From Deltaproteobacteria bacterium (GTDB lineage Bacteria; Myxococcota_A; Polyangia; Polyangiales; Houyiibacteriaceae): a stretch of DNA of 14,482 bases. Location: the NCBI GenBank assembly GCA_034670305.1, contig JAXMNT010000091.1, forward strand, positions 1 to 14,482, written 5' to 3'. Below the pieces are notes generated by a model. It made no database searches, was not told where the DNA came from, and saw only the letters and a list, made by a program, of their open reading frames with translations. This document shows positions 127 through 14,482 of this stretch, in pieces. The position numbers and the translations under genes were made by a program. Every line of letters begins with the position of its first letter. The stretch's first letter is position 1.

Positions 127-303
127 CCCGTGCCCGTGCCCGTGCCCGGCTGCGCTCACACGTCCACGGCTTCCGCGATCGCCACGGCCACCGCGTCCGC
201 TTCCGCGACCGCTTCCGCGACCGCTTCCGCTTCCGCTTCCGCTTCCGCTTCCGCTTCCGCTCCCGCGTCCGCGTCCGCTTCCGCTTCCGCTTCCGCTTCC
301 GCT
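127..303. repeat. Low-complexity hexamer tandem repeats: (CCCGTG)3 then a degenerate (GCTTCC)n ladder
   Basis: cccgtg repeats at 127-147. A 6-nt-periodic gcttcc/gcgtcc/gcgacc array runs from about 169 to 303 and abuts the radical SAM stop codon. Confidence 0.92.
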
Positions 304-1609
304 ACACGACCTGCAGGCGACGTTTGGTCGCGAGGGCGTCGTGCAGGCTGCCGCCGGATGGCGTGGCCTCCATCGCGGTCTTCAACGGCACGCCGCCGAG
401 CACCACGTCGTCCTCTTCTACGAACTCGGGGCAGTCTTCGAGCGCGATCTCGAAGCGGCCGTGATCGAAGGGCACACCCTCCGCCGCTTCGACGCGCACC
501 AGCCGCTCGCGTTTGCCTTCGGCCTCGAGCATCAACGCGCGGTGGATGCAGAGTGGGTTGTTGCCCGGTTTGCCGAGCCACGAGTGCGCGGTGTAGCTGC
601 AGCCGCCGCGGCACGCGTCCGCGTAGTAGCAGTCGCGGCAGTAGCCCCAGAGGTCGTCGACGGTGCGGTCTGCGAGCCGCCGGAGCGGTTCGCGCTGCAG
701 GATCTCCCGCAGCGGCGTGACGCGTAGATCGCCGCCTGCGTAAGAAGCGGTCGGCAGTGAAGGGCAGCCCTTGAGCGTGCCGTCCGCTTCGATCCCCACC
801 GCGAAGGCGCCGGCACCACAACGTGTCCAGTGCGCGCCATCCGCGCCCCGGTAGCGCACCCACTCTTCGTACGGCCCGAAGTATCCGAGGTTGTTGCCTG
901 GCCGCAGGCGAACGGCGCCTGGCTCCAAAATCGTCTGCTGCATCCAGGTGAGCAGCGGAAACAGATCGAGCAACTCGTACGGCTGCAGCGGCAGCTCGGC
1001 GCGGTCGGCCGCGTTGCCGAGCGGAACCGTCAGCGCCACCTGCCAGTCGGTCGCTCCGAGTTCGACGAGCAGTCGGCCGAGCGCAGGAAGTTCGGGGAGC
1101 GAGAGCCGGTTGATCTGGGTGTTCACGGACAGCCGCATGTCCGACGCGCCCACTCGGCGCGCGGCTTCCACCGCCAACTCGTAGGAGCCGCGCTGGCCCC
1201 GTTGCGCGTCGTGGGTGCGGCCGATGCCGTCGATCGAGAAGCCGACGCCACGCACCCCGGCGGCCTGTGCTTGCGCGACCCGCTCCGCGTCGAAGTCGAA
1301 CCCGCCGGTGGTCAAACCCACCGCCATGCCAGCGTCGGTGAGTGCGCGCGCAACCTCGAGCCAGTCCGAGCGCAGGTAGGCTTCGCCACCGATGAGCGTG
1401 ACCTCCCGGACTCCGACTTCAGCGAGTTGTTCGACGACCGACATGGCCTCTGCGGTCGTCATCTCCCCTTCCCGCGCGTCCCCTGCTCGACTTCCGCAGT
1501 GGCCACAGTGGAGGTCGCACGCGAGGGTCAGTTCCCACACCGCGTAGATCGGGTGAGGGGCCGCTCGGTCTGCTTCGCTCCGGCTCCGGATCGGGACGGG
1601 GTCGGTCAA
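302..1609 (-). CDS. Radical SAM/SPASM peptide maturase, PlpX splicease-like (Y-X10-GDL-associated / nif11-class maturase 3 type)
   Basis: 435 aa, TTG start. YAVWELTLACDLHCGHCGSRAG (CxxxCxxC), LIGGEAYLR, and SPASM cysteines CGAG...GIEADGTLKGCPSL...WGYCRDCYYADACRGGCSYTAH...GKPGNNPLCIHR. This pattern matches the family as I recall it. Starts 3 nt after the stop of an XYG-ending ORF. The radical SAM/SPASM call is secure; the subfamily call is from motif recall. Confidence 0.85.
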   Translation of the reverse strand: MTDPVPIRSRSEADRAAPHPIYAVWELTLACDLHCGHCGSRAGDAREGEMTTAEAMSVVEQLAEVGVREVTLIGGEAYLRSDWLEVARALTDAGMAVGLTTGGFDFDAERVAQAQAAGVRGVGFSIDGIGRTHDAQRGQRGSYELAVEAARRVGASDMRLSVNTQINRLSLPELPALGRLLVELGATDWQVALTVPLGNAADRAELPLQPYELLDLFPLLTWMQQTILEPGAVRLRPGNNLGYFGPYEEWVRYRGADGAHWTRCGAGAFAVGIEADGTLKGCPSLPTASYAGGDLRVTPLREILQREPLRRLADRTVDDLWGYCRDCYYADACRGGCSYTAHSWLGKPGNNPLCIHRALMLEAEGKRERLVRVEAAEGVPFDHGRFEIALEDCPEFVEEDDVVLGGVPLKTAMEATPSGGSLHDALATKRRLQVV

Positions 1610-1612
1610 ATC

Positions 1613-2134
1613 TCAGAGCCCAGGGAGGCCGTAGATCAGCGGGTCGTCGTCTCCACCGCTCATCTCGGTGTACATCGCCGTGCCCCGCATTCTGGTCGGC
1701 GTCTCGGTCGCTGCCTCTGCTTCGGCGGCTTCTGCTTCGGCCGCCTCGGCCAAGCGCGCTTCGGCGGCGGCCTCCGCTGCCGCTTCTTCCGCGAGTGCTT
1801 GCGCAGCCATCGCTGCGGCCTGGGCTTCGGCGGCCTGCCGTTCGGCTTCGACGCGCTCGGCTTCGGCAGCCTCCGCAACGGCCTCCGCAGCGGCTTCGAC
1901 CTCGGCGATCGCCTCGAGCCGTTCCGCTTCCCCGTCGCCACAAGCCGACAGGCCGAAGAGCGACGCTGCAACCAGCCCACCCCGCAGCCCGAAGCGGGGA
2001 CCACTCGCAGCCGCACAGAACGGACACGAACGATCGGCGGGTGTGTCGCCGGCGATCACATGCCGGCGACAGGTGGGGCAGCGGGTGAGCCCAGCGGGAC
2101 TCTTCGCAATGATGTCGCGGTCGGGACGTTTCAC
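1613..2134 (-). CDS. Putative radical SAM substrate: lipoprotein with N-terminal Zn-ribbon, Ala/Glu helical stalk and C-terminal XYG motif
   Basis: CPTC...CPFC (2080-2015), hydrophobic GGLVAASLFG plus lipobox LSA|C (Cys at 1942-1940), ~75 aa E/A-rich helix, C-terminus DDDPLIYGLPGL*. Start placed at GTG 2134 (173 aa) because TATGCT lies 7 nt upstream. ATG 2146 or the ORF-track start at 2269 are alternatives. Confidence 0.8.
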   Translation of the reverse strand: MKRPDRDIIAKSPAGLTRCPTCRRHVIAGDTPADRSCPFCAAASGPRFGLRGGLVAASLFGLSACGDGEAERLEAIAEVEAAAEAVAEAAEAERVEAERQAAEAQAAAMAAQALAEEAAAEAAAEARLAEAAEAEAAEAEAATETPTRMRGTAMYTEMSGGDDDPLIYGLPGL

Positions 2135-2636: not shown

Positions 2637-2764
2637 GGCGCGGTCATAGCACCCCAGGACCGCTCTTGCCCGCCGCCGCGGTTCGACCTTCGGGCGGGAA
2701 GAACCGAGGGGCCGTGTGCGGCGGGTGCGGTGACTCGACCGGCAGGTCCGTGATACCAGGATCC

Positions 2765-3715
2765 ATGCTCCGCATGGCCATCGCGTTCCTCGCGATCTCG
2801 TTTGCCGTCCCGACCACTGGTGAAGCCCAGTTCGGGCCGCAGCCCCCCAACCAGATGTACTACCAGCTGACGACGGTCGCGCGGCTGAACCCGCTCGGGC
2901 TCATCAGCTTTGGTCAGGTCACCTATCGGCGGCGGCTGTTCCGCAGCAACTCGATCTTCACGCGCGACAACTACATCGGCATCGGGGCGATCCCGACCGT
3001 CAGCCCGGCGTTCGGACGGATCGGCGCGCAGGTCGAAATTCAGCCCGTCCCGTTCTTGAGGTTCTGGGCGACCTACGAGTTCGTCGGGTACTTCGGCACG
3101 TTCGACTACATGCAGTCGTTTCCGGACGCGACCGCGGACTACTCGGACACGGCGCTCGGCGATCTCGGGGACGCGGACACCAACTACAGCATGACCGGCA
3201 GCCAGCTGACGTTGAGCGGGACGCTGCAGGCGAAGGTGGGGCCGCTCGCGATCCGGAGCGTGCTGCGGGCCACCCGGCCCGACTACGACCTTCGCGACGG
3301 CGACCGCGTCTTCTACGACATCTTCTACGACATGCTGATCGAAGATCAGAACTGGATGCTCAACAACGACTTCGACGTGCTCTACCTGCACGCGGATCGC
3401 TGGACCGCCGGCATCCGGTACACGTGGGCGCGCTCGTTCATGTCCGACGACGCGAACTGCAGCCTGACCAGCTGCCGCGACGACATCATCACGCACCGGG
3501 TCGGCCCGATCATCGCGTACACGCACTTCAAAGAGTACAAGGCACGCTTCAACGGTCCGACGGTGCTGCTGGCGCTCAACTGGTGGATCAAACATCCGTA
3601 CCGGACCGGCCAAGACGTGAGCCAAGCGCTGCCCTACATTCTTCTCGGCTTCAGCTTCAGCGGCGACCTGCTCGCCCCGCCCCGGGACCGAAGCAGCGAC
3701 GACGACGACGACTGA
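2765..3715 (+). CDS. Secreted, probable outer-membrane beta-strand-rich protein, hypothetical
   Basis: Start at ATG 2765 gives signal peptide [22 protein letters not shown]. Alternating aromatic beta-strand pattern (e.g. [29 protein letters not shown]). Strong GC3 bias. The beta-barrel assignment is inference. Confidence 0.75.
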
Positions 3716-4174: not shown

Positions 4175-4187
4175 CGCACGACAGGAT

Positions 4188-4451
4188 GGCGTCGGGATCG
4201 GCTTCGGGATCGGCTTCGGCGTCGGGATCGGCTTCGGCTTCGGGATCGGCTTCGGGATCGGCTTCGGCTTCGGGATCGGCTTCGGGATCGGCTTCGGCTT
4301 CGGGATCGGCGTCGGGATCGGCTTCGGCTTCGGCTTCGGCTTGGGCAAGGGCCACGGGCCACGGGCACGGGCACGGGCCCTCCCGTTGCGGCTTCGGCGA
4401 CTGTCGCGACTGTCGCGACTCGGTCTCGAGGGCAAGGGCACGGGCAGGGGG
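4188..4451 (+). repeat. Hexamer ladder (GGCTTC/GGGATC/GGCGTC)x25 followed by GGGCAC/GGGCAA repeats and a 9-mer tandem
   Basis: 25 in-register GGnnTC hexamers at 4188-4337 with a 30-nt higher-order unit repeated three times (4231-4320). gggcac repeats to about 4378. gcgactgtc x2.7 at 4397-4420. gggcaagggcacgggcagggg at 4431-4451. Confidence 0.93.
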
Positions 4452-10979: not shown

Positions 10980-10995
10980 TGGCATGTGTCGTGCA
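10980..10995 (+). promoter_or_regulatory. Candidate sigma54 (-24/-12) promoter
   Basis: TGGCATGTGTCGTGCA versus consensus TGGCACG-N4-TTGCW. GG at 10981-82 and GC at 10993-94 have exact N10 spacing. The predicted +1 falls within a few nt of ATG 11008. Confidence 0.65.
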
Positions 10996-11007
10996 CCGTC
11001 CCACATC

Positions 11008-13047
11008 ATGCGACTTTCACTCCTTCTCTCCTCCGCGCTTCTCCTGGCCAGCGTCGGCTGTTCGTCAGACGTGGGCGGGCCGGTCGCCGACCCCCGCGAG
11101 CTGACCGACGAACGGGTCCGGATCACCAGCCCGATCGAGTACACGGACGACCTCCTCTTTCCCGAACTCGAGGGTCGACTGGTGGACACGCTGGTGGAGG
11201 ACGAGCGGCTCGTCCTGACCTACGACGGAGAGCCTGCCGTGCTCATCGAAGAGGGCGCGGTTCTGGCCGGCGGCATCGAGCGCGCCACCCCGTACCTGCG
11301 CCGCGTGCTGAGTGTTGAACGAGACGGACTCGTCTTCACCCTGACGACCCGGCCGGCGCTGCCCGAAGAAGCGATTCGCAACGGCGCGTGGCATTACACG
11401 GTCGGCGAGCCGTACACGCAGGCGCAGCTGACCGACGCGCTCGAGGAAGATCGTTTCGATGCGCTGCTCGAAGAAGCCGAGCAGAGCCGCAACGACGACC
11501 TCGGCGTCGGCGGCCGCATGGACTCGCTGATCGACGACGAAGAGGGCGTCGGTTCGGTCTCGCAGGCGAGCCGACGTTCCCGCATCCCGAACGGTGGCAG
11601 CCTGATCAAAGCGATCGAGGACTCCACGATTCAGTGCAGCTACGAGGGCCGCAACTTCTCCCTCGGCGTCGACATGAGTTCCCAGTACGCCATGACCGTC
11701 GCCTCGAGCATCGACGACGGCAGCCGCGTCGACCAGGTGGACGCGACGCTGGACTTCGTCTTCGAACTCGAGACGACTGGCTTCATCGCGGGCGGCGCCA
11801 AGTGCGTACGCGAACTCGAGAGCCGCAACTTCATCCCGTACCGTTTCCGCGAAGGCCTCGTGAGCATCGCGGGCATCCCGGTGTGGTTCGACATGAAAGC
11901 CGTCGCCTACGGCAAGGCGGAAGTGAAGCTGCGCCTGGGCGACGTCGAGTCCTCGTCCAAGACCGACTTCCTCTACCGCATCCGCTACAGCAGCCGCGAA
12001 GCCACGCCGATCGAACCGACCTGCATCGTCGATCTCGAACAGGCCAACCGCCTCGGGCGCGCGGCCTCGGAAGCCATCGACTGCGAACCTGCCTTCGAGT
12101 GCGAAGCCGGCTGCAACCCCGACTACTGCTCGGAAGGTGACGAAGCCTGCGGTGGCGTCTGCTGCGACAGCCCGCCGACCGCCGCGGAGTTCGCGCCGCT
12201 CTACATGGACATCCCGGTGGTCGCCGTCGACAACACCTACGTGTGCAACTACAACCGCTTCATCGAGCTGCCCTGCAGCACGGCCGAGGCGCTCGGCGTC
12301 GAGTACCAAGACCAGTCCGGCGTGCGTCGCGTCGCGACGACGAGCCGCCGCACCTGGGATTGGGACGTCACCCACGAGCTCACCCCGCAGCGGGCCCGGA
12401 TGGACTCCGGCCGAGGCGCGACGATGGACTTCGAAGTCGAAGGCGGCGCGCTCTTCGAGTTGATGCTCTACCGCATCCTCTACTTCGAGATGAAGGCGGG
12501 CCCGAAGGTCGGCACCACCGTCACGTGGAACCGCGACGCCTGCCTGATCAACACCTCCACCGCGGTCGACATCGGACTCAACTTCGAAGTCGGCGTGCGC
12601 GAACCGATCTTCCTCAGCGACCTGGCCAAGTGGGAGTACCGCCTCGCCTACCCGATCCTCAACGTGCCGGACAAGTCCTACCGGATCGAGAGTTGCCGAC
12701 CGGTGACGACCGTGTCTTGCGACCGGGAGATCGACTGCCACTCCTGCGCGCTGATCGATGGCTGCGCGTGGGTCAGCGCCGCCCATGAGATCGATGTCGA
12801 CAGCCCTCGCGCCGGTGGTTCGTGCATGGCCGAACGTGAGGTGCCGCGGAACCCGAACCTCTGGGCGGCCACCAACATCAACCTCTGCCGGAACTGTGCG
12901 GCCTACCGCACGGTCGAAGCGTGCCAGGCAGACAGCGGCTTCTGCGCGCTGTGCGACGACGGAGGGTACTTCGACCGCTCCTGCATCAACACCAACCGCG
13001 AGTCGCCCCACATCAGTGGGCCGGTCGCGTGCGGATCCTGGAGGTAG
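11008..13047 (+). CDS. Large Cys-rich lipoprotein, hypothetical (probable surface protein)
   Basis: MRLSLLLSSALLLASVG|C lipoprotein signal, 679 aa, beta-rich core. Internal Cys cluster (CEPAFECEAGCNPDYC...CGGVCC) and C-terminal PSI-like Cys repeats (DCHSCALIDGCAWV...C; CAAYRTVEACQADSGFCALC). Confidence 0.82.
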   Translation: MRLSLLLSSALLLASVGCSSDVGGPVADPRELTDERVRITSPIEYTDDLLFPELEGRLVDTLVEDERLVLTYDGEPAVLIEEGAVLAGGIERATPYLRRVLSVERDGLVFTLTTRPALPEEAIRNGAWHYTVGEPYTQAQLTDALEEDRFDALLEEAEQSRNDDLGVGGRMDSLIDDEEGVGSVSQASRRSRIPNGGSLIKAIEDSTIQCSYEGRNFSLGVDMSSQYAMTVASSIDDGSRVDQVDATLDFVFELETTGFIAGGAKCVRELESRNFIPYRFREGLVSIAGIPVWFDMKAVAYGKAEVKLRLGDVESSSKTDFLYRIRYSSREATPIEPTCIVDLEQANRLGRAASEAIDCEPAFECEAGCNPDYCSEGDEACGGVCCDSPPTAAEFAPLYMDIPVVAVDNTYVCNYNRFIELPCSTAEALGVEYQDQSGVRRVATTSRRTWDWDVTHELTPQRARMDSGRGATMDFEVEGGALFELMLYRILYFEMKAGPKVGTTVTWNRDACLINTSTAVDIGLNFEVGVREPIFLSDLAKWEYRLAYPILNVPDKSYRIESCRPVTTVSCDREIDCHSCALIDGCAWVSAAHEIDVDSPRAGGSCMAEREVPRNPNLWAATNINLCRNCAAYRTVEACQADSGFCALCDDGGYFDRSCINTNRESPHISGPVACGSWR

Positions 13048-13255: not shown

Positions 13256-13881
13256 GGCCTGGCTCGCTTCGCGAGACTGGCGGCCCTAATTCGCGCCCGT
13301 CGCTGCCTGCACGTGCTCGCCGCCATTCGGTGGGTCCATTGGAAAACCCTTGATGCGATTGGCGGCTGCGCGCGTCCAGGCGCTCCTTGAGGCGCTCTGC
13401 GTGCACTTGGGGAGTGCACCAGTTGCTCGCCCTGCGGGCTGCGCAGGTGCACGGGTGGAGATGCCTGACTCGCTGGCGCTGAGCGTGGCCTGGCTCGCTT
13501 CGCGAGACTGGCGGCCCTAACTCGCGCCCGTTGTTTCTGAGGGGGAAGGGTTCCCCCTCCGGCCTGCGGCCTCCTCCCCACCTGGGCACCTTCACGTGCT
13601 CGCCGCCTGTTCATTGGGCGCACTGAAGAAGCGATTGGAACAACTGGCGGCTGCGCGCGGTGAAGGCACTCCCGCCGCCTCTACGACTCACTTGGGGAGT
13701 GCACCAGTTGCTCGCCCTGCGGGCTGCGCAGGTGCACGGGTGGAGATGCCTGACTCGCTGGCGCTGAGCGTGGCCTGGCTCGCTTCGCGAGGCCTGCGGG
13801 CTGCGCAGGTGCACGGGTGGAGATGCCTGACTCGCGGGCGCTGTTCGAGGCCTGGCTCGCTTCGCGAGACTGGCGGCCCTA
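13256..13881. repeat. Modular palindromic repeat array (REP/BIME-like mosaic)
   Basis: Block A ggcctggctcgcttcgcgag(actggcggcccta) at 13256, 13487, 13772 (partial) and 13849. Block B at 13310 and 13593. Block C at 13360 and 13645. 83-nt block D at 13404 and 13689, partial at 13793. Several short hairpins. Confidence 0.88.
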
Positions 13882-13906
13882 GCAGGTCGCTGAAAAGCGA
13901 CCTGCT
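13881..13906. other. Perfect 11-bp hairpin with GAAA loop formed by the element end
   Basis: agcaggtcgct-gaaa-agcgacctgct. No U-tract, so not called an intrinsic terminator. Confidence 0.7.
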
Positions 13907-14025
13907 CCCTTGCCGTTGCCCTTGCCCGTGCCCTTGCCCGCGTCGTGGACGCCGTGTGTTTCGCGACGGCGAGGCCGCGAATCCGAGCCCGATGCCCAGC
14001 GGACGAAGCCGCCGGGCATCGGTTG

Positions 14026-14445: not shown

Positions 14446-14482
14446 TCCGCGGGCAAGGGCAAAGGCAAGGGCAGGGGCAAGG
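14407..14482 (+). repeat. Terminal direct repeat, identical to 1-76
   Basis: Exact 76-nt match to the window start. Confidence 0.97.

Follow-up and report, generated by a model that had tools for sequence, protein, structure and literature searches.

A splicease-like radical SAM enzyme encoded beside zinc-ribbon proteins with a lipoprotein-type signal and Tyr-Gly sites in Myxococcota

Introduction

What does a splicease-like enzyme act on when the gene beside it encodes a protein with a lipoprotein-type export signal, and where would the modified product go? The question is raised by a two-gene unit on contig JAXMNT010000091.1 (C91) of a 7.9 Mb Myxococcota assembly; the entire contig, 14,482 bases, was analysed and is called the window here. 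The unit lies on the reverse strand and consists of a gene for a putative precursor protein that ends close behind a Tyr-Gly site, followed by a gene for a radical S-adenosylmethionine (SAM) enzyme with a SPASM domain. Spliceotides are a known kind of product, as are the chemistry that yields them and the class of enzyme that carries it out, and they have hitherto been regarded as released peptide natural products. The survey of Scott et al. (2022), as cited in PMC10849128 and PMC10533398, found such enzymes in 189 genera, predicted 939 systems and confirmed 27 enzyme-substrate pairs. A 2022 review (PMC8868522) states, where it treats these peptides, that no natural spliceotide had been isolated by then and that their biological role was unknown.

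An initial annotation of the window had listed the two genes with their 3-nucleotide gap, an LSAC lipobox, a Glu/Ala-rich rod of about 75 residues, an IYG site at 1628-1636 and the SPASM enzyme, all of which we recovered at the same positions, and had read them as a splicease acting on a lipoprotein possibly displayed at the cell surface. Its family assignment, the conservation of Tyr-Gly and the lipoprotein-type signal were upheld by the comparisons reported below; surface display of the substrate found no support in them.

Results

Placement of the enzyme among SPASM families

The enzyme gene (302..1609, minus strand) encodes 435 amino acids from a TTG start at 1609, 3 nucleotides past the stop codon of the precursor gene. 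Pfam recognises a Radical_SAM domain (62.1 bits) and a SPASM domain (25.3 bits, residues 264-328). The CxxxCxxC motif assigned to the radical SAM 4Fe-4S cluster (C31, C35 and C38; 1496..1519, minus strand) is nearly invariant in a 58-row alignment (A1), and the SPASM region (548..820, minus strand) holds six putative auxiliary-cluster cysteines, C264, C282, C324, C327, C333 and C354, which are invariant or nearly so in the same alignment. Among NCBIfam models the best match was TIGR04103 (nif11-class peptide maturase 3), the family of the prototype splicease PlpX, with 462.3 bits under a cut-off of 725. It was followed by TIGR03913 (GDL motif peptide-associated maturase), with 435.1 bits under a cut-off of 591.75, and the third family reached only 148.3 bits.

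A scan of 1.84 billion protein representatives returned 472 proteins at E<=1e-30, and trees were built from the top matches and the enzymes of the related loci described below (FastTree, 106 rows; IQ-TREE in quick mode, 46 rows). In the IQ-TREE tree the window enzyme groups with that of locus L009 and next with protein P0009 (support 99), and this group is nested in a 34-row clade (SH-like approximate likelihood ratio test, SH-aLRT, 99) together with enzymes of Polyangiales and Nannocystaceae. Inside the same clade stands P0012, a true member of TIGR03913 (771 bits). P0014, the most TIGR04103-like of 20 scanned representatives (551 bits), falls just outside it, and none of the 20 reaches the PlpX level of 725 bits.

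The ranking of the hidden Markov model (HMM) scores and the placement in the tree point to a third, unnamed subfamily of the splicease superfamily. By these measures the enzyme appears nearer to the splicease families than to any other SPASM family, because 462 and 435 bits stand against 148 for the next one and the clade has a support of 99. The kinship with spliceases that had been proposed from the letters of the window was thus borne out, and a clustering with SPASM families of other function, which would have spoken against it, was not seen in the HMM ranking or the trees.

Architecture of the precursor

The precursor gene (1613..2134, minus strand) encodes 173 amino acids between a GTG start at 2134 and a TGA stop at 1613-1615. 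An in-frame ATG at 2146 would extend the protein to 177 amino acids; we prefer the GTG, from which the protein begins MKRPDRD, because the orthologues open with MKRPDD and align to it. Five elements follow one another along the chain. The first is a zinc-ribbon-like segment, CPTC-x14-CPFC, from C19 to C40 (2015..2080, minus strand), recognised by alignment and by the ribbon-enzyme fusions described below and regarded here as a putative docking leader. It is followed by a signal-peptide-like segment from R47 to C65 (1940..1996, minus strand), in which the basic residues R47 and R51 precede a 13-residue hydrophobic run, GGLVAASLFGLSA, and then C65 (codon 1940-1942), which closes the lipobox L62-S63-A64-C65. 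C65 is invariant among the aligned orthologues, and an invariant Cys behind a hydrophobic run with preceding basic residues is the arrangement expected of a lipobox.

Residues 69-143 (1706..1930, minus strand) form an Ala/Glu-rich rod, with 38 Ala and 21 Glu among its 75 residues. AlphaFold2, run on an alignment of eight orthologues, predicted it as a single helix with predicted local distance difference test (pLDDT) values of 88-97 by block; the ribbon hairpin was predicted with moderate values (67-73) and the tail as disordered (<50), for a mean pLDDT of 71.6. The tail of 30 residues terminates in IYGLPGL and contains two conserved spots. The predicted splice site I167-Y168-G169 (1628..1636, minus strand) has Y168 and G169 invariant in 8/8 aligned orthologues amid an otherwise variable tail, and its YGLP context resembles the PlpA2 splice tag PIRPLYGLPI given in Table 1 of PMC10533398. 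Thirteen residues ahead of it stands Y155-T156-x-M158 (1661..1672, minus strand), of which Y155, T156 and M158 are likewise invariant in 8/8 orthologues. The precursor as a whole matched no NCBIfam or Pfam family over threshold, and gave just a sub-threshold zinc-finger match; ten of its relatives had only weak NCBIfam matches, which fell on lipoprotein signal regions.

A protein search gave seven relatives besides the window's own record, and all seven share the window protein's ribbon, its signal ending in Cys, a helix of similar length that is rich in Ala, Glu and Gln, the Y-T-x-M motif and a terminal Tyr-Gly. Most orthologues end in TYGLDF and the nearest relative in TYGLGGL. A run of RRRR about 20 residues from the end is present in six of the eight aligned orthologues, and is missing from the window protein, which has RMRG, and from its nearest relative. 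This combination of a stalk with a single terminal site is confined to a small subclade, and most members of the wider family carry 2-5 sites in an acidic, low-complexity region rich in Pro, Gly and Thr. In the window's closest relative (L010) we also noticed a decayed precursor paralogue downstream of the enzyme (1497-1955), which keeps the start, the signal and the Ala/Glu helix, has lost most of the ribbon and has no Tyr-Gly.

Recurrence of the pairing in Myxococcota

A scan of one genome per species yielded 48 related loci, nearly all from Myxococcota, which together with the window made 49 sources. These were searched in six frames for the ribbon pattern followed by a hydrophobic run; neither a Cys behind that run nor Tyr-Gly was part of the pattern. 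The search found 64 ribbon-lipobox proteins in 40 sources, and a looser pass added L030 and L048, so that the enzyme stands beside one to four such genes in 42 of the 49. In the 40 sources of the first pass there was one gene in 25, two in 7, three in 7 and four in 1, and the genes lay downstream of the enzyme on the same strand (49), downstream on the opposite strand (10) or upstream on the same strand (5). L010 retained just the truncated C-terminal tail of an orthologue, and at L013, L035, L040, L046, L051 and L052 the six-frame search found no ribbon-lipobox gene. Ten of 12 further loci from more distant Myxococcota, searched with 1.5 kb flanks, also had ribbon and Tyr-Gly genes.

All 64 proteins have a Cys directly behind the hydrophobic run, preceded by G, A or S in 61 of them, and the residues past the Cys are rich in Gly, Ser and Asp, resembling lipoprotein linkers. 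Of the 182 Tyr downstream of the Cys, 155 have Gly as the next residue, against a Gly frequency of 0.171 (binomial P ~1e-89, which is overstated because the proteins are related), and the consensus site reads GG-(I/V/P)-(A/M)-(P/A)-(L/A/R/P)-YG-(A/G/L)-PP-(P/D)-D. The conservation of Tyr-Gly beside homologues of the enzyme, which had been proposed as a test of the pairing, exceeds chance expectation, because Y168 and G169 are invariant in an otherwise variable tail and the enrichment extends across the family. The ribbon-plus-lipobox architecture is widespread in Myxococcota and no peculiarity of the window.

Some members depart from the common form. Among them, the Nannocystaceae loci L034, L042, L050 and L056 have repeated T-Y-A-G-P-D-E sites, with Ala at the position expected for Gly. 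L029, L030, L031, L033 and L053, from Nannocystaceae, encode precursors of about 350 amino acids with a Cys-rich C-terminal domain and a single CSFYGGCP site. One of the three tandem precursor genes of L012 (4816-5622) becomes rich in Arg and Pro past its first site (PLYARPP), as would be expected from a frameshift, whether real or an assembly error.

The distribution was examined in an even set of 201 Myxococcota genomes. The enzyme is present in 72 of them (E<=1e-60 to TIGR03913), about one third, and none of the 201 exceeds the TIGR03913 cut-off. Of 13 further sampled genomes in the family to which the window belongs, none has it at this threshold, against 11 of 15 in a neighbouring family, a patchiness compatible with gain by transfer or with repeated loss. 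A profile of the ribbon and signal (A3, 63 positions) matched 31 of the 201 genomes at E<=1e-6, and this and the following counts are lower bounds because the profile is insensitive and missed the window's own divergent ribbon at that threshold. A comparison by hand showed the enzyme in 30 of these 31 genomes, the remaining one (G147) being a marginal ribbon-only match, and placed 42 of the 62 ribbon matches no more than about 2.2 kb from an enzyme match. The remaining 20 are on other contigs or distant on the same contig, and some genomes may therefore have unlinked substrates. The genome of the window has a single enzyme of this type, and a search of it for further substrates with the ribbon signature found none besides the window gene.

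The ribbon as a candidate docking element

No other part of the substrate family is as well conserved as the ribbon. Its four Cys, a Pro and a Phe do not vary across 63 N-terminal regions, which the search pattern itself explains in part, and at least 90% of these regions also have an Arg. In P0009, the sister of the window enzyme in the tree, and in its cluster mate P0159 (an Arenibaculum sp. protein by its NCBI name), a ribbon is fused to the N-terminus of the enzyme itself (residues 1-110), where it is followed by a stretch with RAAAF and a poly-Pro linker; the ribbon of P0009 matches that of the window precursor in 13 of 31 positions (E 3e-5). Ribbons also occur past the enzyme C-terminus, in P0028 (residues 405-422) and P0096 (residues 242-259). 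P0057, in which the N-terminal half of an enzyme is joined to a ribbon precursor, was set aside as a likely chimera. We also noted a ribbon protein at L061 (2693-3016) with one Tyr-Gly and no hydrophobic segment or lipobox, which suggests that the ribbon rather than the export signal is what accompanies the enzyme.

In the account of Richter et al. (2024; PMC11414181), the leader helix of type II binary systems occupies the enzyme site that is used by the Y protein in type I systems, and fusion of the RhaA leader to RhaX results in leader-independent splicing. The natural ribbon fusions fit the logic of this engineered fusion, and by analogy the ribbon region is probably a leader that docks on the enzyme or activates it.

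Discussion

Proposed mechanism

At the level of sequence and gene order, the comparisons establish that an enzyme assigned to the PlpX/TIGR03913 superfamily is genetically coupled to proteins that combine a ribbon, a lipoprotein-type signal and X-Tyr-Gly sites. To the further step, that this is a binary spliceotide-type system working on the precursor of an envelope lipoprotein, with tyramine excision and lipidation both taking place, we give about an even chance. In such a system the precursor would be synthesised in the cytoplasm, and its N-terminal ribbon region would dock on the enzyme in the manner of the RhaA leader helix of type II systems. The enzyme would remove a tyramine equivalent at I167-Y168-G169, a step that we place in the cytoplasm because radical SAM enzymes work there, turning Ile167, six residues before the end of the chain, into an alpha-keto-beta-amino amide. 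The modified chain would then be exported by Sec, lipidated by Lgt and cleaved by LspA at Cys65. Since this cleavage would discard the ribbon together with the signal peptide, signal peptidase II would double as the leader peptidase and no dedicated one would be needed. Anchored by its lipid, the mature product would be an acidic protein with 108 residues behind Cys65, or 109 if the lipidated Cys itself is included, with a helix of about 11 nm (75 residues x 1.5 A) and an electrophilic keto-amide at its free end.

The keto-amide would be the product of this chemistry, and it may serve as a protease trap or cross-linker, as the initial annotation had suggested. By analogy the most likely role would be that of a tethered envelope inhibitor of serine or cysteine proteases, because the keto-amides of spliceotides inhibit such enzymes: spliced Rheinheimera peptides, as reported in PMC11626197, inhibit elastase, chymotrypsin and cathepsin B at 0.03-9 uM, and the unspliced ones are inactive. 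A more far-reaching scheme, which we offer tentatively and consider less likely than not, would have RiPP-type splicing (that of ribosomally synthesised and post-translationally modified peptides) operate in Myxococcota on Sec-exported lipoproteins. The ribbon would retain the precursor on the enzyme until Tyr-Gly is converted, signal peptidase II would be the leader peptidase, and the tip of an Lpp-like rod would covalently capture a nucleophile of the envelope, such as the active site of a protease, a penicillin-binding protein, or an amine in the peptidoglycan or matrix, to give a lipid-tethered trap or a cross-link.

Alternative explanations

Several observations weigh against the spliced-lipoprotein reading, and most of them touch either the export signal or the chemistry. 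The signal of the window precursor departs from the short N-region of usual lipoproteins, since 46 residues including a folded ribbon precede it and the Cys comes only at residue 65, and a strict lipobox, [LVI][ASTVI][GAS]C, is found in only 24 of the 64 family proteins. On the side of lipoprotein processing, the genome encodes an LspA (86.2 bits, above the cut-off of 73.95); the best Lgt match, which lies next to lspA, stays under its cut-off (87.7 against 118.9 bits). The genome also contains 12 other open reading frames (ORFs) with a generic zinc ribbon and one membrane helix, and the ribbon could be a mere cytoplasmic head on a membrane anchor. The long N-region, the rarity of strict lipoboxes and these 12 ORFs favour a variant in which the same pair operates and the substrate is not lipidated, the hydrophobic run being a signal anchor that leaves the ribbon in the cytoplasm and holds the modified rod in the periplasm from the inner membrane. 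We consider this unlikely, given that a Cys stands directly past the hydrophobic run in all 64 proteins without having been asked for by the pattern, that it is preceded by G, A or S in nearly all of them and followed by linker-like residues, and that the weak NCBIfam matches of the relatives fall on lipoprotein signals. Lgt and LspA were also considered as conserved neighbours of the pair and rejected, an Lgt gene lying near the enzyme in 1 of 48 loci (L015).

On the side of the chemistry, the window enzyme scores under the cut-offs of both splicease-related families, and so do ten relatives from other loci (386-519 bits with TIGR04103). The trees contain no true TIGR04103 sequence of PlpX level, and the tie to PlpX rests on the HMM scores; no assayed member of the separate clade was found in the literature consulted; and some Nannocystaceae relatives have T-Y-A-G-P-D-E instead of Tyr-Gly. 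An enzyme that acts at Tyr-Gly by other radical chemistry, such as cross-linking, hydroxylation or epimerisation, and excises no tyramine would accommodate the low scores, the separate clade and the Tyr-Ala-Gly sites. It is nevertheless quite unlikely in our view: the PlpX family is by far the nearest family of known function, the YGLP and YGAPP contexts fit known splice tags (PMC10533398), and the 27 pairs of Scott et al. (2022) that were confirmed to splice had, as summarised in PMC10849128, been picked by the same signature of a Tyr-Gly-rich neighbour. The rod might instead be a carrier, from which a host protease frees a diffusible keto-amide peptide of about 20-25 residues after export, as in a conventional RiPP. 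The Arg run that most aligned orthologues have about 20 residues before the end would suit such a release, yet the window protein and its nearest relative lack it, no peptidase or peptidase-transporter gene adjoins the pair among ten neighbouring ORFs, and the conserved lipobox and rod would be left without purpose, all of which makes this very unlikely.

Finally, the adjacency could be incidental, with the true substrate elsewhere and the upstream gene encoding an unrelated membrane protein. When the enzyme was folded with the full precursor, SAM and three 4Fe-4S clusters, the median ipSAE (an interface score) was 0.45 (runs 0.36, 0.45 and 0.57; best of three controls 0.00), which the tool grades as 'weak support' for a complex; the score counts for the pair, and its weakness is what the incidental reading can draw on. 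Among solved complexes 58 of 80 attained the mark of the tool, as did 2 of 110 mismatches; at ipSAE <=0.60 the number of solved complexes falls to 7 of the 80, and both passing mismatches lie there. The runs share at least 21% of contacts, with a partner pLDDT of at least 52 and no contacts reported. Against a chance adjacency stand the recurrence of the pairing (42 of 49 sources, 10 of 12 further loci), the ribbon-enzyme fusions, and the presence of one such ribbon gene and one such enzyme in the genome, which together make a chance association scarcely credible.

Relation to known systems and significance

The spliced-lipoprotein system that we favour shares features with several known ones. 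With the type I systems of Pleurocapsa (PlpA/PlpX/PlpY and PcpAXY, TIGR04103) it has in common a SPASM enzyme with TIGR04103 as its top HMM match, an X-Tyr-Gly substrate in a YGLP-type context and the alpha-keto-beta-amino amide expected from it. It differs from them in that the enzyme scores 462 bits against a cut-off of 725, that no PlpY/RiPP recognition element (RRE) partner and no peptidase-transporter gene accompany it, and that the substrate has a zinc ribbon, a lipoprotein-type signal and a 75-residue helix in place of a Nif11/nitrile-hydratase-like leader. Type II systems of Rheinheimera (RhaXA, RasXA and RcsXA), as described in PMC11414181 and PMC11626197, resemble it in being two-gene units that lack a Y protein, and in relying, as we propose for the window, on a leader element that binds and activates the enzyme; the natural ribbon fusion parallels the engineered fusion of RhaX with its leader (PMC11414181). 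The putative leader of the window precursor, a Cys4 ribbon with a signal peptide, contrasts with the plain helix of type II, and its product is predicted to be membrane-anchored, not released.

TIGR03913 maturases are the second-best match of the window enzyme (435 bits, under 591.75) and have their true member P0012 in the same 34-row clade. TIGR04133, likewise a SPASM family, is a different one, as the window enzyme reaches just 148 bits against its cut-off of 425. The name of that model, rSAM_w_lipo, points to a partner that we take to be a lipoprotein. In outline the proposed product also resembles Braun's lipoprotein Lpp, in that it would combine a lipobox with a helical rod of about the same length and a reactive C-terminus that could reach another component of the envelope. 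The C-terminal Lys of Lpp is enzymatically linked to peptidoglycan, whereas the window protein, which has no sequence relation to Lpp, ends in Leu and would bear an electrophile.

In the literature searched, which stopped short of the survey of Scott et al. (2022) and its supplements, no splicease linked to lipoproteins or zinc ribbons was found and TIGR03913 was not mentioned. The lists of that survey may already include these Myxococcota precursors. The architecture would mean that a chemistry of small secreted peptides may here decorate a protein of the cell envelope, giving the splice modification a cellular address in about a third of the sampled Myxococcota. It would allow leaders to be removed naturally without a dedicated peptidase, would suggest self-protection or cross-linking as candidate roles in predatory bacteria that secrete many proteases, and in the ribbon would offer protein engineers who work with spliceases a compact natural tag for docking. 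The rod of the window, with its single site, is the simplest member of the family to test.

Neighbouring genes and repeats

Pfam searches turned up no peptidase, peptidase-transporter, PqqD or RRE match in ten neighbouring ORFs of the window, in agreement with the initial annotation, which had noted no adjoining peptidase or RRE gene; the enzyme and the precursor have no PqqD match either, and the Y protein of type I systems thus has no counterpart among these genes. Pfam identified genes for a VOC-family protein, an intradiol dioxygenase, TerB, ClpB and an ABC exporter, which show no tie to the pair. ORFs at 10984-13047 (687 amino acids, Cys-rich, with a lipoprotein-like start) and 2666-3715 (349 amino acids) had no Pfam match. 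A scan of positions 1-2800 gave no promoter-like site and one terminator-like site, on the opposite strand and in no excess over shuffled sequence. A look-up of sequencing runs listed no RNA run with the stretch; four DNA runs, all from the same study, contain it and may be where it came from.

The intergenic regions contain microsatellite arrays of hexamers and of 12-30-base units (45-77, 191-303, 4184-4379, 13907-13939 and 14451-14482), with units such as CCGCTT (18.8 copies), GGGCAA, CCCTTG and TCGGCT-type. One array lies directly past the stop of the enzyme gene and two at the ends of the contig, where they may have caused the assembly to break. A 77-base unit is present in two tandem copies (94% matches) at 13716-13887, and similar text near 13350-13520, detected from repeated ORF translations, may mark a dispersed repeat element.

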